This document shows positions 5,874 to 59,862 of a stretch of DNA of 64,000 nucleotides, in pieces (position 1 is the stretch's first letter; each line of letters starts with the position of its first letter). The stretch is taken from IMG/VR virus record IMGVR_UViG_3300047322_000261; one strand, given 5' to 3'. The notes under the pieces are model-generated. The model did not search any database, was not told the origin of the DNA, and saw only the letters and a list, made by a program, of their open reading frames with translations. A program made the translations under genes and the position numbers. The DNA is from an uncultured virus (IMG/VR IMGVR_UViG_3300047322_000261). Lineage: Duplodnaviria; Heunggongvirae; Uroviricota; Caudoviricetes.

Positions 5874-6787
5874 ACTACAGCTTCATAACAGGATTACCTA
5901 GGTCGGGGTCAGCTTGGATAGCTAACTATCTTAGCTATGATAACGTGTGTTTTCTTCACGATGCATGGAAAGACAACACACCGTCAGAGCTTAAGGAACG
6001 TTTTCAGTCCTACCCTGGTTACGCAGCGGGAACGGCTGACCCCGCGAATGTCATGTTGTATGACAAAATTCAAAAAGAATTTCCTGACGCAAAGTGGGTT
6101 GTTATTACTAGGCCGGAAGCAGAAGTCCGAAAAGCTTGCCAAAATCTCAACATGCCGTTGTCAGACTTCACTGATAACTTCCAGAAATTGTCAAAAGAAA
6201 AAAAGCCACTCAAGATTCCTTTTTCTCAACTCTTTGACCGAGCAGATGAAATAGGTCGTTATGTTTACGAAGACTGGCAATGTCCTAGCTGGCGAACAGA
6301 CATGCTTAAGGGTCTTAACGTTCAGGTTCACTGGGGAAAGGTCTCGGAACAATTCAAGGTTCCAAGTAACATTAAGGAAGTAGCAGCCCTTACTCCTAAC
6401 AAAATGGCCTATATTGACCTAGTTAAAGAGATTTGTAACAACGACGCTAACACCGTTAGATTTTTATCTCAGGCTAGGACAGCATCGGAAGTATATCGAG
6501 CCTTAAACGAAGGAAAGCCAATAGACGTAGAAAAAACCAAAAATCTACTAGAGTCTATGGCTACAGAGTGGGTCATTAGTCCGTTCCTTAGAACCTTCGG
6601 AGCATCCATTGTTCCTGCTATTGTGTCAGCCTTAGAGAAATACAGGTCTGAGGAACTCAAGCATTGCCCTATTGATACAGAGCTTGTTACGGCTGTAACT
6701 TATATCTATCGTGGTAACGATGGAGTAAAAGAATACATGCCTAAGGTAAGAGAGCTAAGTGACAAAATTCTGAAGGAGAAGACGTAA
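5870..6787 (+). CDS. Sulfotransferase-like P-loop protein with helical C-terminal extension
   Basis: N-terminal FITGLPRSGSAW (5'-PSB loop-like) and FPDAKWVVITRP (3'-PB-like) motifs. Confidence 0.65.
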   Translation: MNYSFITGLPRSGSAWIANYLSYDNVCFLHDAWKDNTPSELKERFQSYPGYAAGTADPANVMLYDKIQKEFPDAKWVVITRPEAEVRKACQNLNMPLSDFTDNFQKLSKEKKPLKIPFSQLFDRADEIGRYVYEDWQCPSWRTDMLKGLNVQVHWGKVSEQFKVPSNIKEVAALTPNKMAYIDLVKEICNNDANTVRFLSQARTASEVYRALNEGKPIDVEKTKNLLESMATEWVISPFLRTFGASIVPAIVSALEKYRSEELKHCPIDTELVTAVTYIYRGNDGVKEYMPKVRELSDKILKEKT

Positions 6788-18900: not shown

Positions 18901-19262
18901 CAGCTAGAACGGCTCATAGGTTGTCTAACGAGGGCATGACCGATAAGCCTTGGAGAAACCTTCCAATGAACGAATCTGCTATAGGTGACAGAGATTTCGA
19001 CCTAGCGCAAGCCGCCTACAAGGAAGCAGCCAATATGACAGGAGTTAAACCAACAGACTTACAAGCTATAGCTTGGTTTGGCGAGAAACTTCACTATGGA
19101 AAGAGCGGTTGGATCAACTCTGGCCCCGGAGCCGAGCTAGGAGACTTTAGACCATTCCTAAAGGCGGCTACACCTAAAGGAAGCCTAGGGGAACTAGAGA
19201 TACCAAGTGGATTAAAGCTTCCAAGAGCAACACTAAGCAAACCAAAATGGCTAAACCAATAA
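9963..19262 (+). CDS. Giant (3099 aa) internal virion polyvalent-type protein: HEXXH metallopeptidase, 14 MP[RK]-delimited modules, C-terminal HhH-glycosylase-like domain
   Basis: HEYTH at 11814-11828; repeated [FYL]MP[RKP] junctions; internally repeated domains; C-terminal GWY...LLSTTSP...TIDTWAAR...LQAIAW pattern. Confidence 0.75.
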   Translation: MPTANLADIEQDNTPPPYLAGPQDQPQQQPADPSIPPLLARPETPANSASLDDATIDHDTLQADATNNLAKYNAGDPSINDHDAGMFKGIAKAATDYKTALNNEITAADNTPGWLRAGRDLIGGVKTLAGKASNFLSLGGKPEDWAEFGDVPKSTQDLKEAATGAAEIAQGVVTGVGKMPAVAANLVAGLNELTPYQALRETIPGPWQDEAQKQAAESRAVGDVLEHYANTGASDISRITGVSHDTAKAMIGENVAYMLLGPMGMEGTAEGVANGVRNATNAVGNVTGGLKWAAAKAAPTAVGLAKAATVDVALRKVGLVGGMNELVSTLAGFGGRSGAKNPEIANKVVQLFSDKTLPEITEAAAQQATKPLGLSKNQFFADALKQKAGTLQEAIDADLADMDSTSARRATDLASDGSYKHPYEDLDKEGQSLRDKKQQVQDLQNKAQGILARNDFQKLYDSAIQGFGNFMAHTAQGAAIGAGFAGANAPTGDTSNAVASGLAIGGILGAGAAPFASLSGTRALRISDAAKDLKNWSIKNNAVAGDMSDLSAGQKRTAYSVAGMVNKLGGNKVYLHPEDEMVAWGGQAPDSQPGSGFVDSQGNIHLNKADLPSGVAGHEYTHFTQQFQGLLGEMLSKASPDRMADFEKQYQDALATTGKTRFNSRKERDAEVGRLVLQHTPIELFYGGETGADVLGRMWDGMMGQGKTKFINGFNAPYTRADILAMKQRFYKAGELAKMTDGQIPRDAKPPEVSFTDFTDAQAEKFHRAVEFNQQQGMSPDAAFKDVADNIEFMPKPRPGQTKEEALDEAWERYYAQVQEQNAKREPQEQDFNTRPPKPKWYDPTSFVDDARMRSLLPSEQRPKLEPYVPKPKPFERTYGWMSPEGKYIENKSGNIHANTIAKELNGQDSFRRWRENVIHKGGDETIKNHPYIDAMEWAYRKGWEKGYVRLLNSGKTLYANIGKDFVISPEMKDHLIKRAEESGADRVMVDRDFSKTEKLWDNPDYAGNKAGSAYFGERPEPTHRRLARLLNWHRDQDVLTPHVGQPAKRATIPPEFRAVDRDEFHGTVHETVKAATGRLADAITGRGVNEVRTFTEHLRRQGKPVKKVSDMTPEEIRAELAARDAWNAREGWRGKPAQAPEQRAESYMPRKPGQSKQDAAQEAWERYYNVVQQQNQAAEAGQKMPSPLAITRRQKKLERATEAERVAAEAQRIKDRAEAVARVKAKAKDSGKPQPVYGWLKPDNSFLENKSSDIHADTISKELNPDYKYDQWDHKDEQGRYTDGDYTSIYGSMRGAYEAGWDKGYIRLRNSYDTLYAHLPVKYGPIPESKVNVLKELALENNMNEIIHDNGTSNSYTMWSNPNPVKDTSDYMPRIKSPAIQDKKTGKIYLGENHAVAYNDYLRATPDDKVVSSGRFVPHWDNPRTKEGFIDTDGNFHDRANAWQMAADAGQLTPSSVSRKTKTLFSEDLMPRLTKRQMEAQDKATRDYDFIQAQNMARDEEKKMPTKLSYVRRKNRLERADQAERDAENQRAEQARLDALSRRRFGQGNDRPREVYGWLSPKGEFHKNKGGDIHADTISRLLDPQGYEDSEGSYHDMYGGMTQAYMEGWRNKYLRLTSLGRQMYVHYPAEYGDIPKSQLGELEKIAMEHNMDVVLRDTEDGPEKVLWQSPEFGTRDDGLTSEYEFMPKARQMNDENFKEPFYVEKHGGVYAVVDRRKPSSVGFISPDLKEAQHRAYWANETERPKTSASGLWDSTFVEGEGAAERKQVAKQLGVQEDKHYWEQKPEARAKIKDYYTKQGADFMPRPTPLQVAEGVHRELKKSAEEFIGASPYARKFLDNDKDGMGRYYLMHALVDSVKGKPQGIDLQEIHKSLGMTPTEVEVFADGFRQTVNPAEIEHRINIGSLPAAPYPYDMNPKFEAQMRDTADQTPEDTAGEEWKSGNPPPGWNPREGGSGFWPREFMPRIRAAAVRDNDTGNVFEGRNHIQAETAWQAGDGKNHDYFRRLPNIDQGFVTDEGRFVSRQDGAPIAKASGQLKNNQWRSLYDKNPSMQLISEDVNFMPRMGVPVNEEKWREMFSRSNAHGYPKPIVSAAILDLKDGTKWVGKDHVEAYTSWGAGQDHTKPLNNSTLLDGFIDTNGDFLNRKQAGVRVGETGQMGPEASRILAQTGLDSQTFEGLRSYMPRSKETDLAEHAAKLSDGKIITGSSQGEVYGKLRNQGLDPDSIETGFVDGSGKFLNTGEAYHQAITSGQGAMSFMPRVDKQWEKERWLTRKNIAMLMGWPREDGLKKFAELSPNQQKQIAGYYGPKPGTREDTFFMPKPDDKRAIKEAAIQYPDGTIYAGTNHASAIINSENKVGEFKVGFVTNDRKFLDRKQAMDRAVEIGQISKAAADTELNRQIRMGISEPSRGLESWMFNLDRNFMPKAPAAWKVKDWEDNGKPKSLIVAPATSTIYDTGLNEHRDVRAAIRDSGVTGSLVRAVVNDRDNKLNVEPYSASGEVSASDMKNLNDLATEMGLDGAVNTEFKRAGGPSRIQQARSYAYMPPIRKAEARGNSREVSQEEYDHLAASGATQLNQLRQDTQSTEGMKQNWNDMLNQVYAETRKPWGGATINPATGRDIKLTSGRDVGPFAMSVKDEGQETISVPIDASQREFNDAMLKARHAFPQLNGKDHYLGVFRDDDKGTIDIDPVLVVDTPSQVERIGAYTHASGGAYDYATGNGYFPPHLDYMPRSRADLRKFQEEMAQNYPEAIKPTFQKDKEGNFKVDKDTGEFVPEEREYNLDKTPLYKLATQGIKDPLEKDKAYVKALAQKIANEYKQNWKNDPLAMTAKGWYTDLFKLISDKLGKDNAELFAQLLSTTSPGNFASNNFRFALEAMNGYLSGRYDNILKAFKEAHDAFVRGDLKDASGNPITKVGQFNKYIRDNNILALQASGKKLGKYSLGATYVLAGHFWNKAMGKKVTAFVKNISGVDLDNPTIDTWAARTAHRLSNEGMTDKPWRNLPMNESAIGDRDFDLAQAAYKEAANMTGVKPTDLQAIAWFGEKLHYGKSGWINSGPGAELGDFRPFLKAATPKGSLGELEIPSGLKLPRATLSKPKWLNQ

Positions 19263-23333: not shown

Positions 23334-24080
23334 ACCTAGAAATCCACCCAGTAGCTCTAGCTAAGCTAGGGCTACTTAGCAGGCAGCAGGCTAGAAGGCT
23401 TCTAATGCTAGGCGGATGGTTTAACGCACTAGAAATGGAAGAATTACTTATCGAGGCAGGCTGTATAGACAGCCATGAGTGCTGGACGCCCTACAGGACG
23501 CTATCTAGCTCGCCGTGGTTAGTATACGAGGAAACAACACAATGACGAAGGCAATCTGGAGCGAGCGCATGACAACTAAACAACTAGCACAGCTAGAAGC
23601 TATAGCCACCACCATTAAGACCAGCGAGCTATGTAAACGTGTAACAAACATAGAGAACAACCTGCTGGAGTTAACTAAGCTGGTTAAGATCATAGCATTA
23701 AACCAAACCCGCCGCGAGGCACGACGATACATACCAGAAGGATTTTAATGAAAGTCGGAACCGTATGAGACCAATCCCTAACACCTTAACAATCGGTCAT
23801 CCTCACGTATGGCCTAAGCTAGCCCCTAGGCTGGCGAAATACCTAGAACCTAAACTTGGTAAACCTTATGTTACAACTTCAAGATCGGAACGAGCCACAC
23901 GCAGTCCCTCACACTCTAGTCCTACAGCGGCTAGATGAGTGCCTGTTAAACCTTAAGATTCACCGGAACGACTATCCGGCTGAGTTACTTCCTGTATACT
24001 GGGATGCCTTGAGCTATACCAGAACACTAAGGGAGAGAATGGCAGAAAACTTGGGAGAACCTAGGAGCGGTGGGGTATGA
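23330..24080 (+). CDS. Run of three or four small hypothetical ORFs (about 23330..23545, 23542..23748, 23856..24080)
   Basis: Mostly ATGA-coupled short ORFs; no recognisable domains. Confidence 0.45.
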
Positions 24081-24505
24081 AGATAAAACAATTCAGTGGC
24101 AAGTATCGGTTCCTGTCTAACTTTAAGCCTGTAGAAGTAGAGCTAAATGGGATTCATTATGCGTCTGTGGAACACGGTTATCAAGCACTTAAGGCTACCA
24201 ACGTAGAAGATCATAACATGGTAGCCAGCCAACCAACCGCAGGACTAGCTAAGAAAGCTGGCAGGTCTATTAAGGTAAGACCAGACTGGGACAGCATAAA
24301 ACTTTCCGTGATGGAGAAGCTAGTAAGGTCTAAATTCCGATGGTCTGTTATGGCTGATATGCTATTAGACACTGGAACCGCTGAGTTAATCGAGGGCAAT
24401 AACTGGAATGATACGTATTGGGGTGTATGCCGAGGGGTTGGCGAAAACCACCTTGGAAAGATTCTAATGAAAGTCAGAAGACTTCTATACCTAGGAGAGT
24501 TATGA
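24077..24505 (+). CDS. NADAR (YbiA-like) family protein
   Basis: FLSNF...SVEHGYQA.K...AKKAGR...RPDWD...KF...LLDTG..ELIEGN.WND.YWG...GENHLGKILM. Confidence 0.92.
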   Translation: MKIKQFSGKYRFLSNFKPVEVELNGIHYASVEHGYQALKATNVEDHNMVASQPTAGLAKKAGRSIKVRPDWDSIKLSVMEKLVRSKFRWSVMADMLLDTGTAELIEGNNWNDTYWGVCRGVGENHLGKILMKVRRLLYLGEL

Positions 24506-27286: not shown

Positions 27287-27752
27287 TAGTGAGTGTTGGA
27301 TGTTAATTGTTTAACTGGTTCCCAATCTGGAATACCACACATGCTTTCCTTTTGGGCCAGTAGGTCTTTCAACGCTTCCTGTTCAATGGCTAGGAAGTCG
27401 AAGGCGTCTGCATAATCGCGCTTAGCCTGCTCAAAGGCTAGCTTAGCTTCTGACATAGCCTTGCGTGAGAACCTGATTTCCTCGTATGTGTTATACAACT
27501 CTCTGTCAAGCTGAGCTAGTGTTGTTGGCTTTTCTCTCATTGTCATTGTCCACCTTCCGTTTCCCATTGATCTTCCCATTGAGGAATTGCATCCTCTGTA
27601 TTGTAAAACTTAACGTAGGCCTTGGGTGTCTCCACTGGTAGTTGGCTATGCAGCCAGCGATCTTGAGCGTTACACTCGGCCAGCCTGCGCTGTAGCTTGC
27701 TAATCTCCGCGTTGTTTTCGTCGATCAGTTTTAATAATTGGTCTCTATCCAT
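27286..27752 (-). CDS. Two small coiled-coil hypothetical ORFs (27286..27546, 27543..27752)
   Basis: Translationally coupled ORFs. Confidence 0.5.
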
Positions 27753-28084
27753 GATTTGTAATCTCCGTTGTTGATTTTGTATTTCCGGCTTGGTTTTTCT
27801 AGGTCTAGCCTAGCTATCCAAATGGAAGCTTCCTTACCATCGAGATTAATACGGTGTTCATCATAACATCCTCGTTCAATCCTGCGTATACCTGCTAGTG
27901 TTATGTCATTGACTTCCTGTAGCTCTATCACGATGCTTCCCTTGCCCTTGCGTATCTCTGGACAGAACAAACAGTAAAGATCGTAGCCATTAATGCGATA
28001 GGTTCCTAGCACCTTCTGTTCGCCAAACCTACCGTAGTTAATAAGACCTTCTCGGAGCGTTCCGTAAACCGCTATGTAATTCAT
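27731..28084 (-). CDS. Gamma-glutamylcyclotransferase (GGCT/AIG2-like)
   Basis: YIAVYGTLR.G..N...IE...YD...I..GD; ATG at 28084. Confidence 0.85.
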   Translation of the reverse strand: MNYIAVYGTLREGLINYGRFGEQKVLGTYRINGYDLYCLFCPEIRKGKGSIVIELQEVNDITLAGIRRIERGCYDEHRINLDGKEASIWIARLDLEKPSRKYKINNGDYKSWIETNY

Positions 28085-28383
28085 TTGTATCCCTTTGGTA
28101 TCTGCATTTCTTGAACAGCAGCTATCTGCCACCTGGTCTCCTGTAATTCGTTCATGTAGCTATTGATTTTACTTAGTTGATCTCGGATTTCCGCGCGGCA
28201 ACTGTTATTGAACATTTCAATAGCTTCCTTGGGAGTGGCCGCTCCATACCTGCTACTATAAAACTCAGGCTTAGGCCCGTAAGAAAAAGTAATCTGCCAG
28301 CATAGAGCTTCAAAGGTATTATAGCCACGCTCTTTGCGCCGCTTAATCCATTCATCTACTTCGATCTCATATTTCGTTTTCAT
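28081..28383 (-). CDS. Early paralogue family member
   Basis: CWQITFSYGPKPEF...ATPKEAI...KINSYM. Confidence 0.65.
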   Translation of the reverse strand: MKTKYEIEVDEWIKRRKERGYNTFEALCWQITFSYGPKPEFYSSRYGAATPKEAIEMFNNSCRAEIRDQLSKINSYMNELQETRWQIAAVQEMQIPKGYK

Positions 28384-33077: not shown

Positions 33078-34265
33078 CTAGCACGCAGGAGCATTGTGCC
33101 GATTGTTCAGCAACGGCATCGCTATGATTTTGCCGCTCGGCTGAGTAATTGAAGCAATGATTGGCTTCTCTCCTGCCTTTGTTTTACTAAGGTCACGAAA
33201 CTCTCTCGCCTTCGCTTCCTGTTGTTTCAGCCAGAACGCAACGTGCCTCTCTTGCTCTGTCTCTGGCGCAAACTCAAGATCACCCTCTAGCTCGGCCAGT
33301 GTTCGCGCTTCGCCAGCAGCAGCGATTTCTTCATCTGTTGGCTCGCGTTCTGAATCGTCTGCGGTGTAGCTGCCAGTAAACGCCGCGTTAAAGGCCGCGT
33401 CTGCCGCTTCGTTCTCGTCTTCATCGGTAAGAACACGTGGAGTGCCAGTTGTAATCCAGCGGTTGTTGCAGTCGTAGTAGCCCTGCGGCTCGTAGTCACG
33501 CACCTTAACCCAATCACCAACATAATCATAGTAACCGATGCTGCGATGAAGGGACGAATACACTGGGTTGGACGCTGTGCCAAAGCCGCGATAGGTTGGG
33601 CTAGCTAGGCTATTCCACATGTTACTAACAGAGCCTTGTGCGCCTTTCCAAGCACGTTTGATTGGGCCGTAGGCGTAACCTGAGTTACTATACCAAACAC
33701 CCTTATTCCACGTTCCCTTTTGCTCATTGAATAACCAGACCTTGCCGTTGACGTTCATTAAGGCGATCTTGTTATAGCCGATAGCTTCACCGACTACCTT
33801 GCCGAATCCCTCATGCCCAAACGGAACCATTTCCAGTAAAGGCTCTAGCAGCTTAGCAAACTGTTTTGAATCAGATTCGTTTTTGTCATCCTTGTGAAGT
33901 GAGCTAGGCAGTATACCATTGTGAACCAACGCATACTTGCCATTGCTAACGTCAAACGGGTGGCAGTTGTCAGCATTAACAACTCCGTGAGTAGCTATCC
34001 TGAAATGTAACAAGGCAGCATACTTTTGTAGGCCTTGATAGGCTTTCCAGAAGTCGTCGAAGCTAAAGAATCCTTTGTGAATCTCGATCTTACCATCCTT
34101 AGCGATAGCAAAACCAGCACCCTCTTTGTTGTTAGCGTAACAGTTTTGAAGGTATTTCCTTGCGATATTGACGCCTTTTGGTTTCCATACCGCGATACAA
34201 CCTAGCATGGGAAGCAACTGCCAACAGGTGCTAACCCAGTCTATGATTTGAATTAAGTGTGTCAT
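33078..34265 (-). CDS. Class II (Ntn) glutamine amidotransferase with a 22-aa N-terminal leader
   Basis: CIAVWKP...N.EGAG...HFRIATHG...NCHPF...HNG...SDS...WYSN. Confidence 0.88.
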   Translation of the reverse strand: MTHLIQIIDWVSTCWQLLPMLGCIAVWKPKGVNIARKYLQNCYANNKEGAGFAIAKDGKIEIHKGFFSFDDFWKAYQGLQKYAALLHFRIATHGVVNADNCHPFDVSNGKYALVHNGILPSSLHKDDKNESDSKQFAKLLEPLLEMVPFGHEGFGKVVGEAIGYNKIALMNVNGKVWLFNEQKGTWNKGVWYSNSGYAYGPIKRAWKGAQGSVSNMWNSLASPTYRGFGTASNPVYSSLHRSIGYYDYVGDWVKVRDYEPQGYYDCNNRWITTGTPRVLTDEDENEAADAAFNAAFTGSYTADDSEREPTDEEIAAAGEARTLAELEGDLEFAPETEQERHVAFWLKQQEAKAREFRDLSKTKAGEKPIIASITQPSGKIIAMPLLNNRHNAPAC

Positions 34266-34275
34266 GTTTTTCTTT

Positions 34276-35121
34276 CTAGTTAATTACCGCTGGATGAATG
34301 TAGTCCATATACGTTCTTCCGTGAACATCATTAAACGGTTCTTTACCATTCTCGATGATATAATCAAAGGCCTTAGCTGTGCAGGACTGCCTGTATGGTG
34401 ATGTTTGGCTAGGTGCTGAGTTAGCCTCTAGGACGTATGGATTACCGTTTGCGTCTACCATAACATCGACACCGCAGAAGTCTGCCCCGCCAACCTTAGC
34501 AGCTTTAATGGCAGCTTTGATTACCTTAATGGGCCAAAGATTCCATCGAACGTTGGCAAACTTTCCACCACGAGCAACGTTCCAAGCTACTTCATCTGGA
34601 TTAGCCGGTGTCTTGCTAGCTACCCATACTACCCGATTCTGGCATACGAACACTCGATACTCAGCTACCTTGGCAACCTTAACAGCTATGTAACCGTCGC
34701 CAAAGTTATCCAGTAACCAATGCTTACAGGCCGAAAAACTACCTACAAACAGGTTCCTTCCCTGTGAGTGAGTAGGTGGCCTAGCTATCCAGTGGTTGTT
34801 ACGATACTCATGCGGAACAGTGTCACCGCAAACTAGAGTGAATGGAACGGGAACACCAGCAGCTTGCATATCTAGCCTGCTCTGTTTTTTGTTCCCGCAC
34901 CAGTGTATAGCCTTAGCTGCGTTAACAACCTTGGCATGGATAGGAATGTTGGAAGTGCAACCCCATCTAAATACTAATGGTGTATCGTCATCGGTGGTTA
35001 CACTCTCCCAGTCACCCCTAATCCAGTTTCTAACCTGAGCTATCTGCTTTGTAGCAGCAGCTATGATTCCGTCTGCGCTTGCCTTACCAAGTGCGCGTCG
35101 TCTAAAGATAATTGCTTTCAT
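34276..35121 (-). CDS. ATP-grasp ligase (RimK-like)
   Basis: NKKQS...EYRVFV...DFCGVDV...YVLEANSAP. Confidence 0.88.
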   Translation of the reverse strand: MKAIIFRRRALGKASADGIIAAATKQIAQVRNWIRGDWESVTTDDDTPLVFRWGCTSNIPIHAKVVNAAKAIHWCGNKKQSRLDMQAAGVPVPFTLVCGDTVPHEYRNNHWIARPPTHSQGRNLFVGSFSACKHWLLDNFGDGYIAVKVAKVAEYRVFVCQNRVVWVASKTPANPDEVAWNVARGGKFANVRWNLWPIKVIKAAIKAAKVGGADFCGVDVMVDANGNPYVLEANSAPSQTSPYRQSCTAKAFDYIIENGKEPFNDVHGRTYMDYIHPAVIN

Positions 35122-36107
35122 TATTCCTCGAATGTTAGTCCAAACTCGTTCTTAGCTGAGCAGTTTTTGAACGGCTTCCATCCAACCTGCTCTGATAGGT
35201 CAGTAGCCTTACCAAACCAGCGGCACATGATGAATGACATAAGGTGCGGCCATTTGTCGCTATGCTTAACAAAGCGCATGAATCCTGCCCGACTAATAGC
35301 TTGGCTTAGCGTAACATCTTCCTGAGAGCAGAAGTCCAACAAGGCATCGACAAACTCAATGTTCTTGTAGACTGACTCTTTCTTTAGCGTTCCCTTGAAC
35401 ATGCGAAACTCAATCGTTTCCTGATTGCACAGGTTGATAGCTTCGTGTCGCTCGCTAGTCAAGGCGGCAGTCTCAGGGTCTTTCGCTTTATACTTAGTAT
35501 AGCTGTTGTCTTTGCGGCCAGACATAACATAAACGAATTTCTTGTTAGCTTGGCTGTTAATAAAGCATACTGCCTTAGCTATAATACCCTCTGTTAGAAC
35601 GTCGCGGCTAACGTGAACGTGCATACCGCAACGATCACTGTTCCACGAGATAAGACCATTGGGGCGTTTTGTCAGGAATTTCTCCCAAATGATATACTGT
35701 TTTTCTTTCAGATATGGTCTTGTTACGATCTCGATTCCGTTCTGTAGGGAACCATCACGTTTCATTATCACGGCATCACCCATGAGATCGTCAATTTCAC
35801 GAAGCTTTGCCTGAACGTTCTTCTCGGAAGGGTCTTTTACTTCGGTCTCTAGCTCGACGCCGAAATACCGCTTTCCCTTCTCGATCTTGCTAGTGTCTAC
35901 TCTTGTGCTGTATTCTGCTAGCTGTGGATTCTCGCGGAAGCATGGACGACATTGGTCGTTCCTCATGTGGTTTCGCAACATAAACTCCCCGCAGAACGGG
36001 CAGTAACGATAGCGAAGCGCGCATGAAATGCACCGCTCTGTGTCTAGGTATCTGTTAGCGTCGTCGCCCTCAGACACTAGGACTACATCGCACTCAATAC
36101 AATTCAT
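35121..36107 (-). CDS. Putative amidoligase (COOH-NH2 ligase type) with N-terminal Cys-rich region
   Basis: FGVELE...KRDGSL..GIEIVT...CGMHVHVS...AINL...TIEFRMFKGT. Confidence 0.88.
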   Translation of the reverse strand: MNCIECDVVLVSEGDDANRYLDTERCISCALRYRYCPFCGEFMLRNHMRNDQCRPCFRENPQLAEYSTRVDTSKIEKGKRYFGVELETEVKDPSEKNVQAKLREIDDLMGDAVIMKRDGSLQNGIEIVTRPYLKEKQYIIWEKFLTKRPNGLISWNSDRCGMHVHVSRDVLTEGIIAKAVCFINSQANKKFVYVMSGRKDNSYTKYKAKDPETAALTSERHEAINLCNQETIEFRMFKGTLKKESVYKNIEFVDALLDFCSQEDVTLSQAISRAGFMRFVKHSDKWPHLMSFIMCRWFGKATDLSEQVGWKPFKNCSAKNEFGLTFEE

Positions 36108-37039: not shown

Positions 37040-37369
37040 TTATCGCTTTTCCAAGTCTCGACGTTCGTTCTCTTTTTGTCTTTCATAATGCCAGCAAACA
37101 ACGGCAGCGTTCCATAGGTTAGCGTAAACATGCGGTATGCCGCTCTCAGGGTCTAATTCTTCTCCCTGTGCTGCCGCAAATGAATGTCTAGCACCAGCGG
37201 CTAGATATCTAGCAACGCCCTCATCTGGCTTATTGTGCATCCAGCTATCACGGTTCCCGTATTTAGCGTTACCATAGTCTGAAATAACAGAGAAGGCTTT
37301 TGTAGCCTCAAATGGAATTAGTAACGGGTTAACTTTTCCTGTAACATCTTTTCTGTCTATGTCGCTCAT
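37040..37369 (-). CDS. dATP/dGTP diphosphohydrolase-like (DUF5664)
   Basis: K...LLIP...YG..KYG..SW...RY..A..RH...GEELDPESG.PH...WN. Confidence 0.8.
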   Translation of the reverse strand: MSDIDRKDVTGKVNPLLIPFEATKAFSVISDYGNAKYGNRDSWMHNKPDEGVARYLAAGARHSFAAAQGEELDPESGIPHVYANLWNAAVVCWHYERQKENERRDLEKR

Positions 37370-37866
37370 GTTATGATTGCTAATGTATCTACTACTCTGC
37401 ATTGCTTATTGTATCGCTTCACAAACTCATCTACGGCTCTGGTAGCACCCTCGCAAGACCTTCTGCCGTAGTCATGGCAAGCTAGGACTTCTGGATAGAG
37501 ATTATCTAGGCAGAATCTCGTGTCGTCATACCTACCAGTAGCATCTATAAACGCCATATCGGCGTGTCGTAACACAGGTAATGCGTCTTGTGCTTTAGCT
37601 AGAACAGGTATCACCCTGCGACTAACACCATGCTTGGTTATGTTATCCATGAAGTAATTCAACGTTGGTGAAGGATTGTAACTTGGATAACCAGCGTGAG
37701 GGTCAATAGCTACCACGCTGATAGCTTGCTTAGCCATTAAGATCGTCGAGTAGCCAAGTAGCGATCCTATCTCTATTACGTATCGGTTTCTAGCTAGTGC
37801 CTCTAGCTCCCTAGCTTCTCGCTTGCTAAGTGACGAGCTAATTCCTAACTCTGTTATTCTACTCAT
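37366..37866 (-). CDS. Class I SAM-dependent methyltransferase (Methyltransf_24-like)
   Basis: VIEIGSLLGYST, AIDPH, AFIDA, CHDY...AVDEF. Confidence 0.8.
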   Translation of the reverse strand: MSRITELGISSSLSKREARELEALARNRYVIEIGSLLGYSTILMAKQAISVVAIDPHAGYPSYNPSPTLNYFMDNITKHGVSRRVIPVLAKAQDALPVLRHADMAFIDATGRYDDTRFCLDNLYPEVLACHDYGRRSCEGATRAVDEFVKRYNKQCRVVDTLAIIT

Positions 37867-38191
37867 TGGTATCAAGATAGTAGACTGGTAGTCCAAGAAA
37901 CTCAGCCAATGACTTCTCTACAGCTACACCCTTGGACTTCTCCCATTCGGGCATTAACCAGATGTTATCAACCTTGGTTATGGCTTCACAATCTCGTAAG
38001 ATCATCTGCCGGATTAGCTCAGGTGTTACTTCGTCTGTCTCTGGATTAAAGCCAGCCTCTCGATCTAAGGTAGCTGGACTAACAACGGTGTAGCCTTGTT
38101 TCTCTAATAGCTCTGCGTATCTATCAAACGCGGGAAAGTTATAGTGTTCATAGCCCCTCATTGGGCCAGCTAGGTAGCATCTTGGTTTCAT
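37859..38191 (-). CDS. DUF4406 / nucleoside deoxyribosyltransferase-like protein
   Basis: YLAGPMRG...NFPAF...D.I..MP.WE.S.G...E...A..LGL.V. Confidence 0.8.
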   Translation of the reverse strand: MKPRCYLAGPMRGYEHYNFPAFDRYAELLEKQGYTVVSPATLDREAGFNPETDEVTPELIRQMILRDCEAITKVDNIWLMPEWEKSKGVAVEKSLAEFLGLPVYYLDTNE

Positions 38192-38607
38192 TTGATTTCG
38201 TATTCTAAGTAAGGGGGTATAACAGCCGCCCAGTGTTTCATTTGTCTTTTGGTTCCGGCATAGATATCTATGACTGGACACTTGCCATGACTGGCCTTTC
38301 TTCGCTCAACTGCGCTTCCTCTGTCTTCGACGGTAAATACCCCGCTCCCAATAAATCCAGCCAGCGCAGGAAAGAACACCTTTGTGCCAAACGGGAAACA
38401 GCACGACTCAGCCGCGACCGTTCTCGCCACCTTTGCGCGTCTTCTGTTGCTTGCAGCAATTCTATCTCCATATTTGTCTTCGTGTTTGTTATACAGGGTA
38501 ACTCTAGCTACCCCATGACTAGCTGCCTTGTTTGCAACTGTAGCCACAGTTGAGCAGCCTGCTAGCCAGCAGGCCAAGACAGCTAGACATAAAATTGTTA
38601 GTCTCAT
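38188..38607 (-). CDS. 3D-domain (cell-wall hydrolase-like) lipoprotein
   Basis: Lipobox LAGC; TVAA...PFGTKV...VEDRGSAV...IDIY. Confidence 0.75.
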   Translation of the reverse strand: MRLTILCLAVLACWLAGCSTVATVANKAASHGVARVTLYNKHEDKYGDRIAASNRRRAKVARTVAAESCCFPFGTKVFFPALAGFIGSGVFTVEDRGSAVERRKASHGKCPVIDIYAGTKRQMKHWAAVIPPYLEYEIK

Positions 38608-52808: not shown

Positions 52809-54641
52809 CTAGTCAAGTTTTGTTACCCATTTAATCTGAGAGTCTATCACGGACTTGTCGTCCCAGAGTTGTCTAGCCATGAACGGTTGGGGTTTAGTTG
52901 GCATGCTAGCTGGCAACTCTCCCGCGTGCAATCTCATAGCATGAGGAATCATAACTAAAGAATCCGAGTGGTCACAAGACCTACCCATATTAGATTTCTT
53001 GAAGTCTACCTTAGACTCTAGTTGCTGCAACGTCTGAAAGAACTTCCATCGCCGCATACATAACTCATCTCTGAGTTTATGGTATCCATCTAGTCCGGGT
53101 GAGAACTTGATAAATCCTGCGTCTAGCCATACAGAACAAGCAAACCACATCTCTGTTGAGATACCACGGTAACGCTCGCAGGCTGGCTCTGTGTCTTCCT
53201 GTAGTATCTTTGTTTCTGTCGCAGCTTCTCCCCACTCCACGCCCTCTACCTTGCCGTATTGCCACGTTAGGTAGTCATATAGCCCTCGGCCATTGCCAGT
53301 CTTATCAATAGTTACCCACTCAGGCCTAACTCCGTAACTTCGGAGTATTTTGATAATGTCGTTACCCATTTCGTGAGTCTTGCCTTTACGAAGGGTTAAC
53401 TGTTGGTCTATCTGTAAGGCTAACCTTGTCTGTGGTATCTCGCTGAAGTTTCGCTGCTCGTCTGTGAATCCTATAGCTCTACCGAATGTCCCTATGGTTA
53501 GGATCGGTTCGTCTCCACCTTCAGCAAAAGCGGGGTCAATAGAAGCTACAGGAGTTATCCTTCCCTCAAACATCCATCGTCCTACCGAGTTATTAAATGA
53601 TGAAAGAGAAAACACGTTAAAGGAAGCTGTGCTGTCAGGTGGATACATGCCACGAGCATAGACCCAGTAACTAGGGTCTGCCTCACCCTTACGAACATAA
53701 TTCATGTAACCTTCATAGGTCATCATGCCCGGAAATACGGTTTTCTTAGATATGACGTTCTCTGACTTAGCGGCGTCTAGCCTAACGACATTCCATCCCT
53801 CGCGTGACACCCACTCATCCATGTCTTCTGTTAGAGAACCCCAACCTTCTATCGGCTCTGCTCGGAAGGCGCATGGGTTTGTTTTCTGCCGTGGGTTGGT
53901 TAGAGCTACAACCTTGATTGACCCTGAGTAGTCTTGGTTTCCTAGGATGTTGTCTACGCCGCGCCACACACCTTCAGGAACAACGTCAGCTTCGTCGATA
54001 ACAACAAAGCATCGAGACATAGGCCCGAATAACGGGTGAGGCCTAACCCTAGGATAAGGGTGGAATCCGGTTAGGCGACCTTCTCCTGTGTCACCTTCAG
54101 GTATAGCTACCTGTAGGATAGAAGCAGATTTGTCGCTCCCCGGAAACATCAATCCACCAGCTACAATATCGCCAGCGGGATTAACTATCGAGTTAGCATG
54201 AAAGTTGGTCAGACGGGAAACTAATCCACTTTTCGCATGTCCTGCCGTTGTCGAAACTAACTTCCCACTCGTATACTGTGGGTCTTGCGTCCAGTATAGG
54301 TCTGCCCACGCTGACGTGGAAAAGGTTTTCCCAGATGATCCGCACCCTAGAATGATTACCTTCGGTTCTAGTGGGTTTGTTAGGTGCTTCCATATTAACT
54401 TAACTGACCTAGGCTCTGGGGTAAATAGGTTGTTTCCCCATGCCAGCAATGCTGCCTCTGTAAATTGGCCTGTATTGAGTAAAGATAGGTAGTAGGCGTT
54501 AATCCCCATCTTGGCGTCTGATTCTGCCTGAACCCTAAGTGGGTTATCGGAAAACTCAAGTAAGCTGTTAACGGCTTCTGTCCAGTTTCCACGGTCAATC
54601 AGTTCCCTCGCCTTTAAGATTACTTCTGCTAGCTCGGTCAC
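52809..54641 (-). CDS. terL: Terminase large subunit
   Basis: Walker A GCGSSGKT, Walker B VVIDEAD, LTNP; nuclease SIDPAF...DKTGNG...S.DHSDS. Confidence 0.88.
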   Translation of the reverse strand: MTELAEVILKARELIDRGNWTEAVNSLLEFSDNPLRVQAESDAKMGINAYYLSLLNTGQFTEAALLAWGNNLFTPEPRSVKLIWKHLTNPLEPKVIILGCGSSGKTFSTSAWADLYWTQDPQYTSGKLVSTTAGHAKSGLVSRLTNFHANSIVNPAGDIVAGGLMFPGSDKSASILQVAIPEGDTGEGRLTGFHPYPRVRPHPLFGPMSRCFVVIDEADVVPEGVWRGVDNILGNQDYSGSIKVVALTNPRQKTNPCAFRAEPIEGWGSLTEDMDEWVSREGWNVVRLDAAKSENVISKKTVFPGMMTYEGYMNYVRKGEADPSYWVYARGMYPPDSTASFNVFSLSSFNNSVGRWMFEGRITPVASIDPAFAEGGDEPILTIGTFGRAIGFTDEQRNFSEIPQTRLALQIDQQLTLRKGKTHEMGNDIIKILRSYGVRPEWVTIDKTGNGRGLYDYLTWQYGKVEGVEWGEAATETKILQEDTEPACERYRGISTEMWFACSVWLDAGFIKFSPGLDGYHKLRDELCMRRWKFFQTLQQLESKVDFKKSNMGRSCDHSDSLVMIPHAMRLHAGELPASMPTKPQPFMARQLWDDKSVIDSQIKWVTKLD

Positions 54642-55500: not shown

Positions 55501-55821
55501 TTAGGTGCTTCTGCTAGCATTTCTGTTACGGGCTTCATATTTCTTTAGGTAGTCGTAGATTTTTTTGGCCCATTCCGCGTCGAGCCTTCCGACCTTGAAT
55601 TTATTGCACCTAAAGCACAGAATCCCGCGCACGAGTTTACGTTTTTCTTTTGGGGTAAGTTTTTTGTATCCTGCGACATGCTGGTGGTCAACATGTAGCG
55701 AGACGTTCTTGGGTGGGCTTCCACATAAGCGGCATACCCCCTTCTGTCTTTTAAGCATCTGGTTGTATTCACGCTCTGTTATCCCGTAGGTTCTTCGTAG
55801 GTGACTGTCGCGTGCTGTCAT
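55501..55821 (-). CDS. Endonuclease VII-like protein
   Basis: YGIT..EY..ML..Q.G.C.LC...LHVDH.H...VRGILC..CN. Confidence 0.88.
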   Translation of the reverse strand: MTARDSHLRRTYGITEREYNQMLKRQKGVCRLCGSPPKNVSLHVDHQHVAGYKKLTPKEKRKLVRGILCFRCNKFKVGRLDAEWAKKIYDYLKKYEARNRNASRST

Positions 55822-56329
55822 GTATAATTTTTGCCCAGACTGGGAGCCTAGCTTGTATAACTAACCACGGTGATAGCTCTTTTGGCAAGCCAATAATATG
55901 AGCGGTTGCTGCCGTGTAACAGGCTGCGTTTGGGTATATATGCTTACCTAATTCATTCAAAAGATTAGTAACATAACTTATCCTGTAGTGCGTATCAGGC
56001 CAGTGGGCGTGAATGTAGCTATCAGTCTCTTTCCATATAGGGTCTGCTTCGCCTTTAACGAATGAGTTGCCCCATCCCATGATTTTATTACCGTCACCGA
56101 TAAATACACTACCGTTCTTCAGAAACTCATACGCCTGTATTATAGGTGCGTGTGTTCCACCTAGAGAGCTAATGGCAGCAACAACAGACTTAAGGAAGTC
56201 TCCGCTACCCATGTAGGCCACCTTAAGGATTTCCGTGCTTATGTTCTGCCTCTGTGTTGCCTCTCGGTGTCCACGGAACAATGCATCTACCAGAGATGCT
56301 TTGGGTTCATCTTTCCAAAGGTGTGTCAA
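55769..56329 (-). CDS. Citrate-synthase-like protein (truncated, catalytic residues altered)
   Basis: NIST / LGGTH / KIMGWGN...DP / IYPNAACY / ARLPVW align with the citrate synthase motifs NAST / GPLHG / IMGFGH...DPR / YPNVDFY / R..GW. Confidence 0.7.
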   Translation of the reverse strand: MTHLWKDEPKASLVDALFRGHREATQRQNISTEILKVAYMGSGDFLKSVVAAISSLGGTHAPIIQAYEFLKNGSVFIGDGNKIMGWGNSFVKGEADPIWKETDSYIHAHWPDTHYRISYVTNLLNELGKHIYPNAACYTAATAHIIGLPKELSPWLVIQARLPVWAKIIHDSTRQSPTKNLRDNRA

Positions 56330-56657
56330 TTTTATATCCTCGTCTTTCTAGTTCTTGTATTAACTCGTTATCCCTAGCGCACGCAAACTTGTGCATAGGC
56401 CCTCTTAGCTTAGAGTTTTCACTGTGCGTTCCCCACTTAACGTTACCAGCCGAGAACGGTAGGGATTTCTCTATCCTAATCAAGACATGACCCTTCGGCC
56501 TTGGGCCTACACACGCTCTGAATGTTTGATACCTTTCTTCGTTGTCGCTAACACCCTTATACCACTTCCATGTATCGCATACATGATCGCCATGTGTTGT
56601 ATTCATGCGATACCATGCCTTGTATTCCGGCGACTCGTTAGCTGGCGGTCTATCCAT
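56307..56657 (-). CDS. Degenerate HNH homing-endonuclease-like protein
   Basis: SPEYKAW..M...VC..W...F...VG.RP.G..L.RI.....F...NVKW.T..EN; the usual DRID/NCRW residues are altered. Confidence 0.6.
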   Translation of the reverse strand: MDRPPANESPEYKAWYRMNTTHGDHVCDTWKWYKGVSDNEERYQTFRACVGPRPKGHVLIRIEKSLPFSAGNVKWGTHSENSKLRGPMHKFACARDNELIQELERRGYKIDTPLER

Positions 56658-57589
56658 TAACCACATACAATTTCCTTTATCTGTTTAAGTGCTTCGTCTT
56701 TTTCTGCGGCTGCTTGGTAGTGCCATGCGTAGGGAATGGACAGTGTAGCTCTTGCTAGGTCATGATAGCTGTTAACTATCAGGCTGTTAGGAACCGTGTA
56801 TCCGCTTCTCTGTATCGTGTTCCAGCAACTATAATCAAACAACGTTGGGCAGTTATCGTTTAGTGCCTCATAGAACCTATTAGCTAGATAGTTGTATGAG
56901 TTATGGGTTACTTCGTCTTCTATGTATAGCGATGCCTCAAAATCTATCAACCCCCTGTTATTCCAATCTATCCTAGGTATAAAGTTAGCCCTATAGCACC
57001 CCGTAGCCGATCTGAATTTTATTACGTTTTTAGGGTGCGTAGAAACAATAACATTTCCTCGGAGATATTTCTGGAAGCTTGGTATCCTTCCCCTGCGGAA
57101 ACTACCGTAGTAAACGATACCCTGTCTCCTATCTGGAAACATATCTATGTCTGTTTGGACTTTATGAACCCTAGATGGTTTATAGCACAAGGCGTTTAGG
57201 TTAACCTTTCTCCAAGATTTTGTGTATTTCTTAACTACCTTTGATATGTCAGGTTCGTGATTAGCTATGACGGTATAATGCCTTCCGGCCTTAGCTGGCT
57301 TCCATAGTATCGTAGGTTCTCCTAGGTTGTATTCGTTGGTAACGTAATACAAGTCTGCGTCAGGAGAGTTATCTATCCATGCCTTATCTACAGCGCAGTA
57401 TGGCGACGCATGGACAAAAATAATCTTGTCGTATACTCCGTTCATCTTTAACGCTTCATTAACAGAAGGGTAAGACCATATTAGGTCTGCACCTAGGTAG
57501 TCTGCTACCTGCTTAGCGTTCTGCCAGTGAAGGTTTGTTGGTATCTCGCCTTCCGATCCCTTGTGTGAATCTATGACTAATATAGACAT
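56657..57589 (-). CDS. GT-B glycosyltransferase resembling T4 DNA beta-glucosyltransferase
   Basis: IVYYGSFRRGR and SLYIED...NYLANRFYEAL...LFD parallel T4 BGT motifs as I recall them (IYGGSFR; R.WE). Confidence 0.6.
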   Translation of the reverse strand: MSILVIDSHKGSEGEIPTNLHWQNAKQVADYLGADLIWSYPSVNEALKMNGVYDKIIFVHASPYCAVDKAWIDNSPDADLYYVTNEYNLGEPTILWKPAKAGRHYTVIANHEPDISKVVKKYTKSWRKVNLNALCYKPSRVHKVQTDIDMFPDRRQGIVYYGSFRRGRIPSFQKYLRGNVIVSTHPKNVIKFRSATGCYRANFIPRIDWNNRGLIDFEASLYIEDEVTHNSYNYLANRFYEALNDNCPTLFDYSCWNTIQRSGYTVPNSLIVNSYHDLARATLSIPYAWHYQAAAEKDEALKQIKEIVCG

Positions 57590-57816
57590 TACCAGTATTT
57601 CTGAATGAAGTGAACTATAACAAAACAAAGCAGAAACACTAAAATTAAGTCTACGGCCACAGTAAAAGCAAAAAATACAAGCTCTATAATGGCGTCTAAT
57701 AGCTCTCGTCTTTGGTTTTTTTTACGGTATAGTTCGTCTCTTTTTCTGGCAGCTTCTGCCTGCATTACTAACCTATCGTGCTGTTCTATATTGAAGTTTA
57801 CGTCGTAGTTTGGCAT
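57589..57816 (-). CDS. Small membrane protein
   Basis: C-terminal hydrophobic stretch. Confidence 0.55.
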   Translation of the reverse strand: MPNYDVNFNIEQHDRLVMQAEAARKRDELYRKKNQRRELLDAIIELVFFAFTVAVDLILVFLLCFVIVHFIQKYW

Positions 57817-59477
57817 GGTGTTAACTGCATCGTGTTGCCGTTGAAGTTGAAGTAGACTTCCTTATCTACCTTGCCTCTGGTAAACTTCAAGGTCTTGACT
57901 GTTACAATGTCGCTGTCTTCTGGATGTTCGGCGTTGTCTTTGGTGATACCTAGGATAAGGTTGGCTGATTCCTCTAGCTCTCCCGCACCGCGAGCATCGT
58001 GTAAGGATAGGGCCTTCCTAGCTCCACGATTTCCCTTGTCGTCTTTTTGTGGTCTACCTACCTGAGAACCCATAACAACAACGGTTCCTGTGTTCTTGGC
58101 TAATACCTTAGCCTGCTGTGCCTTAGCCGCCATAGCTTCGTATCGGTTGAACGACACGCCTTTAACAAGACCCATGTAGTCAATCATTACCATAGCCGGA
58201 TGCTTGCCAAACTTTAACTCTGATTGCTCGATCAGTCTCTCCATGTAATCCATTGTTATTCCTGATCTGTCGCAGGTTAGGATATGTTCTAGGTTCTTAA
58301 ACTTCTCTTTCATAGAAGCTGTTCCTTCTCGGTAATCTTTAAGAACGTCGTCTTCTAGGCAGTTACATTCCATCTGGGTGTTACGCATGAACATAGCTTC
58401 AAGTGGTAGCTCTAGCTCAAAGAACAACGTTGGCAGAGGCTTTGCAGACCTAGCCATGTATTGCATGAACGCTGTCTTGCCTTGCCCTGTGTCACCCATG
58501 ACCATGATTAACTCTCCCGGCATCATGGTTTTGTTACCGTAAGCGGGAGCTAGTCTACCTAGCGAGAACCCGCGAGTATTGACTTCCTTAACATATTCCT
58601 TAAACTGTTCTTCCATTTCGTAAACAGTGTAAAGAGGCAAAGGCTCGATAGCCATAACTGCCGACATAATAAGATTCCTTACAGCGGTAGACTTGTCTTC
58701 CTGCGTCTCAAGGTAGTCAGAAATATCCTTAAACTCTTTAGGGATGTTGACTTTCTTGGCTGAGTTTACCTTACCGTCTAGCGATGCTATGACTGCTCTG
58801 TAATGCTTGTCTCCTGCCGCGTCATTGTCCGAAAAGATCAGAACGTTCCTTCCCTTGAGAAACTCAGAATAGGCCGGAAACCACGAGCTAGAACCACCGC
58901 AATGAGTAGTAGCGCAGTATCCTAACCCTATAAGGGTGTCTGCATCTTTCTCTCCCTCGCAAAGTAACACGGTCTCTGACTTCATTACTTCGGGTAGATT
59001 GTATAACACGCGGGTTATACCATCAAGACTCCAATTCCAATCATCGCCTTCTGGTTGACGCTGGCGGAACGACTTAGGCTCATACCTAACTACTTGGTAT
59101 AGTAACTTGCCAGTCTCGTCGGTGTAGTCGTAGGTCTTTACTTCTTTAGATTCTAGGGTGGCGGAAGGGGTCGGAGTCTGCACAGTCCCTTGTCCGCTTT
59201 TATTAGCAGGCTCCCCGCCACCCAATTCTTCAACAGCTTGCTTAAAGTCCATTCCTTTCTCCATCATAACCCAATCTATTGAAGTCCCGCCTGTGTCGCA
59301 GTCGTTACAGTGCCACACGTTCTTTCCTACGTCTAGGCTTACACATAGGTGCATCCTGCCATGTTCGGTTGTTGGACATTTGTTGGTGACGTAGTTATTT
59401 CCGGCTCGGCGTAAACTCGCCCCTCGGCCTTGAACGAACGAATGGATTGGGTATTTCTTGATTTCTTCTGTTGTCAT
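57798..59477 (-). CDS. Primase-helicase (Zn finger + TOPRIM + DnaB-like helicase)
   Basis: CP..EH...WHCNDC; LLCEGEKDAD; SDND; GDTGQGKT; MIDY; SQ. Confidence 0.92.
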   Translation of the reverse strand: MTTEEIKKYPIHSFVQGRGASLRRAGNNYVTNKCPTTEHGRMHLCVSLDVGKNVWHCNDCDTGGTSIDWVMMEKGMDFKQAVEELGGGEPANKSGQGTVQTPTPSATLESKEVKTYDYTDETGKLLYQVVRYEPKSFRQRQPEGDDWNWSLDGITRVLYNLPEVMKSETVLLCEGEKDADTLIGLGYCATTHCGGSSSWFPAYSEFLKGRNVLIFSDNDAAGDKHYRAVIASLDGKVNSAKKVNIPKEFKDISDYLETQEDKSTAVRNLIMSAVMAIEPLPLYTVYEMEEQFKEYVKEVNTRGFSLGRLAPAYGNKTMMPGELIMVMGDTGQGKTAFMQYMARSAKPLPTLFFELELPLEAMFMRNTQMECNCLEDDVLKDYREGTASMKEKFKNLEHILTCDRSGITMDYMERLIEQSELKFGKHPAMVMIDYMGLVKGVSFNRYEAMAAKAQQAKVLAKNTGTVVVMGSQVGRPQKDDKGNRGARKALSLHDARGAGELEESANLILGITKDNAEHPEDSDIVTVKTLKFTRGKVDKEVYFNFNGNTMQLTPCQTTT

Positions 59478-59862
59478 TTTGTTAGTGCGTTTTCTCCTGT
59501 TACTGCTTTCATAAAAGTGTCGTGATTTGGAAGGTATCGTTCCTGCATAGCCCATAGTTTTGTAGGAAACAATGGTGAGTTTCGGATAATCCAACCCTCT
59601 GCTTCGGCGTAACTACGTAGCGGTAACGGACACGCCTTTTGTCTATTGTCTTCTCTAATTACATACCATATCTCATTCATTGTATTATGTATCCTTCAAC
59701 GGTTGACCAAAAAGGTTTGAATGGCTCTATGCTCTGTGCCTCAATAGCACCTATTTCAGCTTCCATAGCGTAAGGGTTATCTGAATAAACATAGACTCGA
59801 TGGTCTCCATGTCCTGAGTCTACCAACTCAGTTAGTTTGTCTCTTAGTTTTTCAATGGTCAT
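59474..59862 (-). CDS. Two small hypothetical ORFs (59474..59680, 59677..59862)
   Basis: ATGA coupling. Confidence 0.5.

Follow-up and report, generated by a model that had tools for sequence, protein, structure and literature searches.

We describe a truncated citrate synthase (CS)-like protein, here called mini-CS, that is encoded in a 64,000-nucleotide (nt) stretch of DNA from an uncultured Caudoviricetes virus (IMG/VR record IMGVR_UViG_3300047322_000261); the whole of this stretch is referred to as the window. The protein belongs to a large and essentially phage-only family that keeps the core of the citrate synthase fold, has exchanged its catalytic residues in a uniform manner, and is genetically coupled to a minimal sulfotransferase (ST), to which it is sometimes fused. 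Our preferred reading, to which we assign a probability of roughly 55%, is that mini-CS no longer acts as a citrate synthase and is instead the ligand-binding partner of the phage ST, the two proteins forming one two-part enzyme that is a single chain in some phages. The gene and the signal ahead of it are as follows:

55769..56329, minus strand: mini-CS gene (P0001), 186 amino acids (aa), TTG start; supported by the open reading frame (ORF) and its translation, a PF00285 match, the family alignment and a structure model.
56337..56341, minus strand: Shine–Dalgarno-like GAGGA, 7 nt upstream of the mini-CS TTG; read off the sequence.

The closest homolog of the window protein (P0002, which begins MTHLWKDEP) starts at the same position, and the mini-CS start is therefore sound. 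The surrounding DNA is that of a phage: a large terminase is encoded at 52809..54641 and a primase-helicase at 57798..59594, together with virion structural proteins. Two nuclease ORFs overlap the ends of the mini-CS gene, an HNH-like ORF upstream (56307..56666, minus strand; phrog_3377, 1.1e-6) and an endonuclease VII downstream (55501..55821, minus strand; PF02945, 1.2e-18); these flanking ORFs may be homing-type insertions.

The citrate synthase fold had been proposed in the initial annotation of the window, with structure search as the suggested check, and it was borne out by a family profile, by a predicted model and by structural alignment. PF00285 matched mini-CS residues 8–166 (E-value 2.9e-6) with a score right at the cut-off (27.0 bits, cut-off 27), involving only profile positions 164–341 of 357. 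A profile of the family (A1) searched against PDB sequences returned 34 chains at E ≤ 1e-3 (best 9.4e-12), and all 34 were citrate synthases, 2-methylcitrate synthases or citryl-coenzyme A (CoA) lyase. The AlphaFold2 (AF2) model of mini-CS had a mean predicted local distance difference test score (pLDDT) of 88.9 and a predicted template modeling score (pTM) of 0.85, and the top Foldseek matches to this model were all CS-family chains (template modeling [TM] score by query 0.58–0.74). VIA-align placed 173–175 residues at a root-mean-square deviation (rmsd) of 2.3–2.6 (Z 17.0–17.1) on the citryl-CoA lyase modules 6hxo, 6hxl and 6hxp and on residues 148–341 of Thermotoga CS, and gave a Z of 12.9 to residues 213–416 of pig CS (5cts); Z to CS chains overall was 12.4–17.0, which holds for the part present only.

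That part is well delimited. Mini-CS starts at the equivalent of pig CS residue 213 (Thermotoga CS residue 148), such that CS residues 1–212 are absent, and it also lacks the C-terminal CS segment, including the region that would carry Arg421'. Of the large domain, mini-CS retains stretches aligned to pig CS 213–274 and 386–416. Given that the small domain of pig CS comprises residues 275–385 according to passages of PMC4524684, mini-CS corresponds to ∼60 residues at the end of the first large-domain segment, the complete small domain and the ∼30 residues that follow. We regard it as confirmed that the product of 55769..56329 has the fold of citrate synthase and citryl-CoA lyase in truncated form.

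In pig CS, Asp375 acts as the general base, His274 is catalytic, and Arg329, Arg401 and Arg421' bind oxaloacetate or citrate. To follow these positions through the family, we aligned 169 representatives (140–260 aa) to the family hidden Markov model (HMM) and counted residues. All of the motifs that the initial annotation had listed are present in the window protein, namely GH-R-EA (20–24), GGTH (57–60), GWGN (85–88), DPI (96–98), NAA (134–136) and Arg161, and the key residues can be summarized as H21, GGTH60, GWGN88-SF-x-K92, D96, PN134AA, R161 and W165. His60, equivalent to His274 of CS, was histidine in 169 of 169 representatives, with GGTH aligning to the GPLH of CS; G85, G87 and N134 were likewise invariant (each 169/169). 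Arg161, equivalent to Arg401, was conserved in 168, and W165 and S31 in 167 each. H21, which would be the first histidine of HxDH (its alignment is uncertain), was histidine in 163. The histidines placed in the pig CS active site by passages of PMC4524684 are His235, His238, His274 and His320.

The remaining catalytic positions have been replaced. At position 88, where CS has His320 and GFGH has become GWGN, we counted N in 115 representatives, S in 37 and G in seven; position 136, where CS has Asp375 and PNVD has become PNAA, was A in 86, S in 59 and G in 23, and no general base is conserved there among the 169. Position 98, equivalent to Arg329, is Ile in the window protein and most commonly A, L or I in the family. 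Thus, of the arginines for oxaloacetate and citrate, the Arg401 equivalent is kept, and both the Arg329 equivalent and the Arg421' region are lost; the full-length subunit with its N-terminal large-domain helices is missing as well (186 aa here and 145–220 aa in the family). Two basic positions persist: K92 (K in 134, R in 16), which we take to be the counterpart of CS Arg324, a contact of the CoA diphosphate, and K129, ahead of the PN motif (K in 141, R in 11).

The uniformity of these substitutions across a deep family means purifying selection for a different pocket. Together with the size of the family, this rules out the random decay of a captured host gltA, the outcome that the initial annotation had named as contradicting its view of a rewired active site; that view stands. 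So does its conclusion that this is not a normal metabolic citrate synthase, given the loss of the His320, Asp375 and Arg329 equivalents and the retention of those of His274 and Arg401. Because the general-base aspartate, the second histidine and an oxaloacetate arginine are lost family-wide, neither a condensation between acetyl-CoA and oxaloacetate nor cleavage of citryl-CoA should be possible, and we consider both activities excluded as far as sequence can tell.

The mini-CS family is large and essentially restricted to phages. A word-index search recovered 26 proteins (166–204 aa; 31%–100% identity to the window protein), and an exhaustive profile search recovered 767, 475 and 327 clusters (50% identity) at E ≤ 1e-3, 1e-10 and 1e-30, respectively, with lengths of 145–220 aa for nearly all of the best 150 clusters. 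Relatives are encoded at 43 IMG/VR loci. In a collection of prokaryote genomes with one genome per species (185,579 species), mini-CS was found at only four loci, all of them on contigs of metagenome-assembled genomes. Among cultured phages (INPHARED, 50,697 records), neither tblastn of P0001 (E ≤ 0.01) nor blastn of the region gave a match; no PHROGs family matched mini-CS, and BFVD held no structural match (best E 0.26).

We clustered the ORFs of all 43 loci and searched the loci with HMMs of three small P-loop families (c5, c55 and c18). An ST-like ORF abuts or overlaps mini-CS in 22 of the 43 loci, with the ST first in 16 and mini-CS first in six, and in seven T7-like loci the ST lies 3.4–3.7 kb downstream of mini-CS, past the primase-helicase gene. 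A search of the whole records of the remaining loci uncovered a fourth type of small ST elsewhere in the records of L038, L039, L041 and L035, and all three of the searched records that are at least 99% complete and have no nearby ST carry one elsewhere. Overall, both mini-CS and ST are present in 33 of 43 loci or records, and mini-CS without ST was not found in any near-complete record examined. The pair recurs on clearly different phage backbones: P22-like genomes, where it sits between head-closure and needle-like genes and a gp7-like ejection protein; genomes with tail-fiber genes and giant internal proteins; T7-like genomes with RNA polymerase, a gp2.5-like single-stranded DNA-binding protein and RusA; and a group with ThyX and DUF932.

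The two genes have also been joined by nature. P0043 and ten relatives (11 in total, 50%–88% identity) carry ST and mini-CS, in this order, in one protein; two of the 11 are cut at the N terminus and one at the C terminus, all three on short contigs. The reverse order, mini-CS followed by ST, is seen in one protein (P0164). With these natural fusions, we hold the link between mini-CS and ST to be settled. A phylogenetic tree agrees with this picture: ST type clusters on the mini-CS tree (10 changes compared with a shuffled mean of 17.8; none of 200 shuffles was as low), and the six loci with mini-CS first group together with P0164.

Not every long frame was a fusion, and a 456-aa ORF in L006 proved to be an artifact of an open upstream frame, the ST there being read in another frame. 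Mini-CS also occurs fused to an N-terminal pentapeptide-repeat region (P0144; 307 aa), a third domain architecture of the family.

The assignment of the partner as a sulfotransferase rests on profiles and motifs. A mixed ST profile (A2) matched almost exclusively sulfotransferases in the PDB, led by 2z6v (2.6e-8) and followed by SULT1A1, TPST1/2, CurM ST and NodH. The ST alignment contains a GxPRSG[ST]xW loop and an RDxxDxxxS-like segment, presumably the 5'-PSB and 3'-PB motifs that bind 3'-phosphoadenosine 5'-phosphosulfate (PAPS). Pfam Sulfotransfer_3 matched the c55 type at E 2.4e-5. These sulfotransferases are rare in cultured phages: tblastn against 50,697 records gave eight weak matches with the c5 type and no match with the c18 type. 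The window has a copy of its own:

5870..6787, plus strand: ST-like protein, 305 aa, core residues 1–165; candidate mini-CS partner.

This protein has the motifs (a GLPRSGSAW loop and a VVITRPEAEV...A segment), matches the c5-family HMM (E 2.1e-28) and Sulfotransfer_3 (E 3.2e-6), has its domain at residues 5–154, and falls among viral sulfotransferase clusters of 165–205 aa in the ESM Atlas; used as a single query against IMG/VR, it found no relatives. It sits in the tail/virion module, where a 1235-aa protein (208..3915) lies upstream of it; this larger protein is homologous to the cluster (c16) preceding the ST/mini-CS pair in related loci. At 50 kb from the mini-CS gene, this conserved partner lay beyond the local context and had been missed by the initial annotation. 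Residues 166–305 add ∼140 helical aa at the C terminus, an extension that the relatives of 160–220 aa do not have and that gave no family match.

The analysis establishes the fold, the residues lost and retained, the purifying selection, the phage restriction, and the coupling and fusions; physical contact between the two proteins, the ligand and the acceptor are inferred. In the enzyme we envisage, the ST half would supply the site for the sulfuryl donor: the phage ST is minimal (∼160–220 aa), with PAPS-type motifs and little structure for binding an acceptor. The mini-CS half would offer what was once the CS active-site cleft as a binding pocket, and this would take up either the acceptor or a nucleotide of the 3'-phosphoadenosine kind, for instance CoA, 3'-phosphoadenosine 5'-phosphate (PAP) or PAPS. 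We consider the nucleotide-holding role because CoA and PAPS have in common a core of 3'-phosphoadenosine 5'-(di)phosphate/phosphosulfate. Modeling was of little help here; the predicted complex of the window mini-CS with the ST core (1–165) scored 0.00 against a mark of 0.32, which speaks neither for nor against binding, and the AF2 model of the natural fusion P0043 (11-row alignment; pLDDT 71, pTM 0.51) was too low in confidence for its domain packing to be read.

The gene setting may bear on the substrate. Tail-fiber, internal-virion and ejection genes surround the pair in the c5 and c55 clades, and in one locus (L015) it directly follows a tail collar fiber gene. Passages of an earlier study (PMC2938197) describe bacterial sulfotransferases that are co-encoded with tail-collar-type proteins and predicted to modify them. 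The c5/c55 setting would be compatible with a virion component being sulfated, or with a protein ejected with the DNA. In the T7-like phages, mini-CS and ST sit in the region for DNA metabolism, a location at odds with a virion substrate. A supply of PAPS is hinted at by an APS (adenosine 5'-phosphosulfate)-kinase-like protein in one of five near-complete mini-CS phage records (PF01583; 41.9 bits, cut-off 21.1):

L054 (record of L021) 1402..1836, plus strand: APS-kinase-like ORF, 144 aa, GLSGSGKTT; the phage also has a mini-CS/ST pair.

Such a gene fits a need for PAPS and hints at a supply boosted by the phage; a phmmer search with this protein found no APS-kinase-like ORF in the window or at the 43 loci.

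A more specific version of the two-part enzyme, which we put forward only tentatively, is that a new two-domain sulfotransferase of phages has recruited the CS fold for its second half, with the old cleft (His60, Arg161, Lys92 and Lys129) holding an acceptor that the minimal PAPS-binding domain would sulfate. Equally tentative candidates for that acceptor are CoA or acyl-CoA, a hydroxy acid, and a virion or tail-fiber substrate. If true, phages would have a means of modifying a metabolite central to the host, or else the phage particle itself, by a chemistry and a subunit pairing that are undescribed.

Several observations weigh against a two-part enzyme. In the window itself, mini-CS and ST are ∼50 kb apart and on opposite strands, and in the T7-like clade the primase-helicase gene separates them. 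Ten of the 43 loci have no ST; these are fragments (18%–75% complete), short contigs, or L014, for which only the locus was available. Many of the 43 loci are near-duplicates, and with 31 distinct mini-CS sequences in the tree there are fewer independent cases than loci; the clustering on the tree could arise from shared descent alone. Each of two cultured phage records searched whole had a distant c5-type ST but no mini-CS, so an ST can exist, and work, alone. Finally, the assignment of the PGxG loop and two basic residues of mini-CS as those that in CS hold the 3'-phospho-ADP part of CoA follows known CS structures, not a tool result.

The best-surviving alternative, though a doubtful one, is that mini-CS is a stand-alone enzyme or binder of acyl-CoA or CoA (such as a thioesterase, a lyase acting on a different substrate, or a CoA sensor) that uses His60 and Arg161 with the new residues Asn88, Ser89 and Lys92, and that the ST is simply a frequent neighbor in an accessory cassette. 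Conservation of the pocket while the CS catalytic pair was replaced is what one would expect of such a protein, its closest fold is that of the citryl-CoA lyase modules (Z 17), and the lack of adjacency in the window and the T7-like loci is in its favor. A chance neighborhood, however, sits poorly with fusions in both orders that persist to 50% identity and with the 22 cases in which the genes abut, whichever comes first, across different phage backbones, and an enzyme of this kind is hard to square with an Asp375 position that has no conserved general base.

A role in counter-defense is improbable. Here mini-CS would be a sponge that sequesters a 3'-phosphorylated adenosine nucleotide, or an ejected virion protein acting right after entry, and its being small, accessory and phage-only would suit this, as would the neighbors of the c5/c55 pair (P22 gp7-like ejection proteins, tail collar fibers and internal virion proteins). 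A place in the structural module may, however, mean no more than a moron, and no similarity to a known sponge was found (PADLOC and defense libraries were outside the search).

Slightly less probable again is an inhibitory, dominant-negative mimic, in which the large-domain helices that the fragment retains would let it associate with host GltA and shut off the tricarboxylic acid (TCA) cycle at its entry. The retained stretches of the large domain (pig CS 213–274 and 386–416) belong to a region that contributes to the dimer body, and family members come from phages of many different environments; yet the N-terminal 212 residues, most of that body, are absent, the invariant residues lie in the former active-site motifs and not only on the surface, and neither the conserved pocket nor the coupling and fusion to ST would be explained.

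We reject as very improbable the partnership in DNA or glycan modification that the initial annotation had drawn with the nearby GT-B-like glycosyltransferase, from which mini-CS is separated in the window by only the HNH-like ORF and which resembles viral GT-B and T4 beta-glucosyltransferase-type clusters (a lead only), since none of the 43 loci has a homolog of that protein within 8 kb of mini-CS (best BLASTP E 4.8) and the recurrent ∼320-aa neighbor of mini-CS (c19) bears no relation to that protein (hhalign probability 0.5%).

56657..57628, minus strand: GT-B-like protein, 323 aa; no Pfam or PHROG match.

In its own right this 323-aa protein may be a DNA or glycan glucosyltransferase. In the ESM Atlas it falls among viral GT-B clusters, some of which have PF09198 (T4 beta-glucosyltransferase) in 40%–97% of their members, and its structure has TM scores of 0.62–0.72 to bacterial GT1/GT4 models.

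Other genes of the window deserve mention. The virion module contains a giant ORF (9963..19262, plus strand; 3099 aa) with DUF7178 near its C terminus (phrog_839); giant ORFs of 1344–1793 aa come after the ST/mini-CS pair in L015, L021 and L037. A NADAR protein is encoded at 24077..24505 (plus strand; PF08719, 8e-23), and a NADAR gene also adjoins the distant ST-like gene of Stenotrophomonas phage Bhz60 (L053). A run of three genes on the minus strand (33078..36107) encodes a class-II glutamine amidotransferase-like protein, a RimK-like ATP-grasp protein and Amidoligase_2, with a GGACT gamma-glutamyl cyclotransferase-like gene nearby (27731..28132, minus strand); we take the run to resemble a phage system for ligating peptides or amino acids. 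At 37040..38281 (minus strand), the N-terminal domain of a dATP/dGTP diphosphohydrolase (PF18909, 7e-19), Methyltransf_24 and DUF4406 are adjacent and may form a module for nucleotide or DNA base modification.

Mini-CS has a known fold, but the family and its partner are new, as its function probably is too. A full-text literature search found no description of a phage CS-like family or of a link to ST. The naming of these genes may have consequences. The source names given to relatives of mini-CS by annotation pipelines are "citrate synthase." Virome studies count gltA among the abundant auxiliary metabolic genes of viruses, Lake Baikal being one example (PMC8066274); if viral gltA calls are mini-CS, claims that phages boost TCA entry would be wrong. 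A passage of PMC10580990 calls it unclear what phage sulfotransferases do, and a conserved, sometimes fused partner provides a concrete handle for assays. More broadly, an ancient metabolic fold has been cut down to a ligand-binding core and reused; mini-CS is smaller even than the citryl-CoA lyase module, which among the matches is the smallest relative with a CS fold.

We compared both halves of the pair with the systems they resemble. The phage ST shares both motifs with PAPS-dependent enzymes of the Sulfotransfer_3 type (2z6v, TPST1/2, SULT1A1, CurM ST and NodH; profile matches at E 2.6e-8 to 1e-3), but at 160–220 aa it is shorter than the solved sulfotransferases (250–400 aa) and lacks most of the structure for binding an acceptor; no CS-fold partner is described for any of the matched entries. 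Mini-CS resembles citrate synthase and 2-methylcitrate synthase (PF00285; 2p2w, 3tqg and 5cts) in its fold over pig CS 213–416 and in its GxxH, PGxG, DP, PN and R...W motifs, and differs in lacking residues 1–212 and the C-terminal segment, in the replaced His320, Asp375 and Arg329 equivalents, in a Pfam score right at the cut-off, in being phage-only and in its link to ST. The best structural match is citryl-CoA lyase, that is, the ACLY module and the Hydrogenobacter thermophilus enzyme (6hxo, 6hxl and 6hxp; Z 17.0–17.1 over 175 residues, rmsd 2.4–2.6), which is also a cut-down CS fold without the N-terminal CS part and is matched by the family profile (6hxp, E 1.3e-7). In comparison with this module, mini-CS is ∼70 residues shorter (186 vs. 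256–262 aa), only 10%–17% identical, and has Ala136 at the place of the catalytic aspartate (Asp1026/Asp541), an equivalence drawn from the shared motif and not from residue-level superposition. The D1026A and D541A lyase entries, which according to their PDB titles hold citryl-CoA or substrates, mutate that same aspartate. Given that mini-CS lacks catalytic residues that define citrate synthase and citryl-CoA lyase, it should not be filed under either name.

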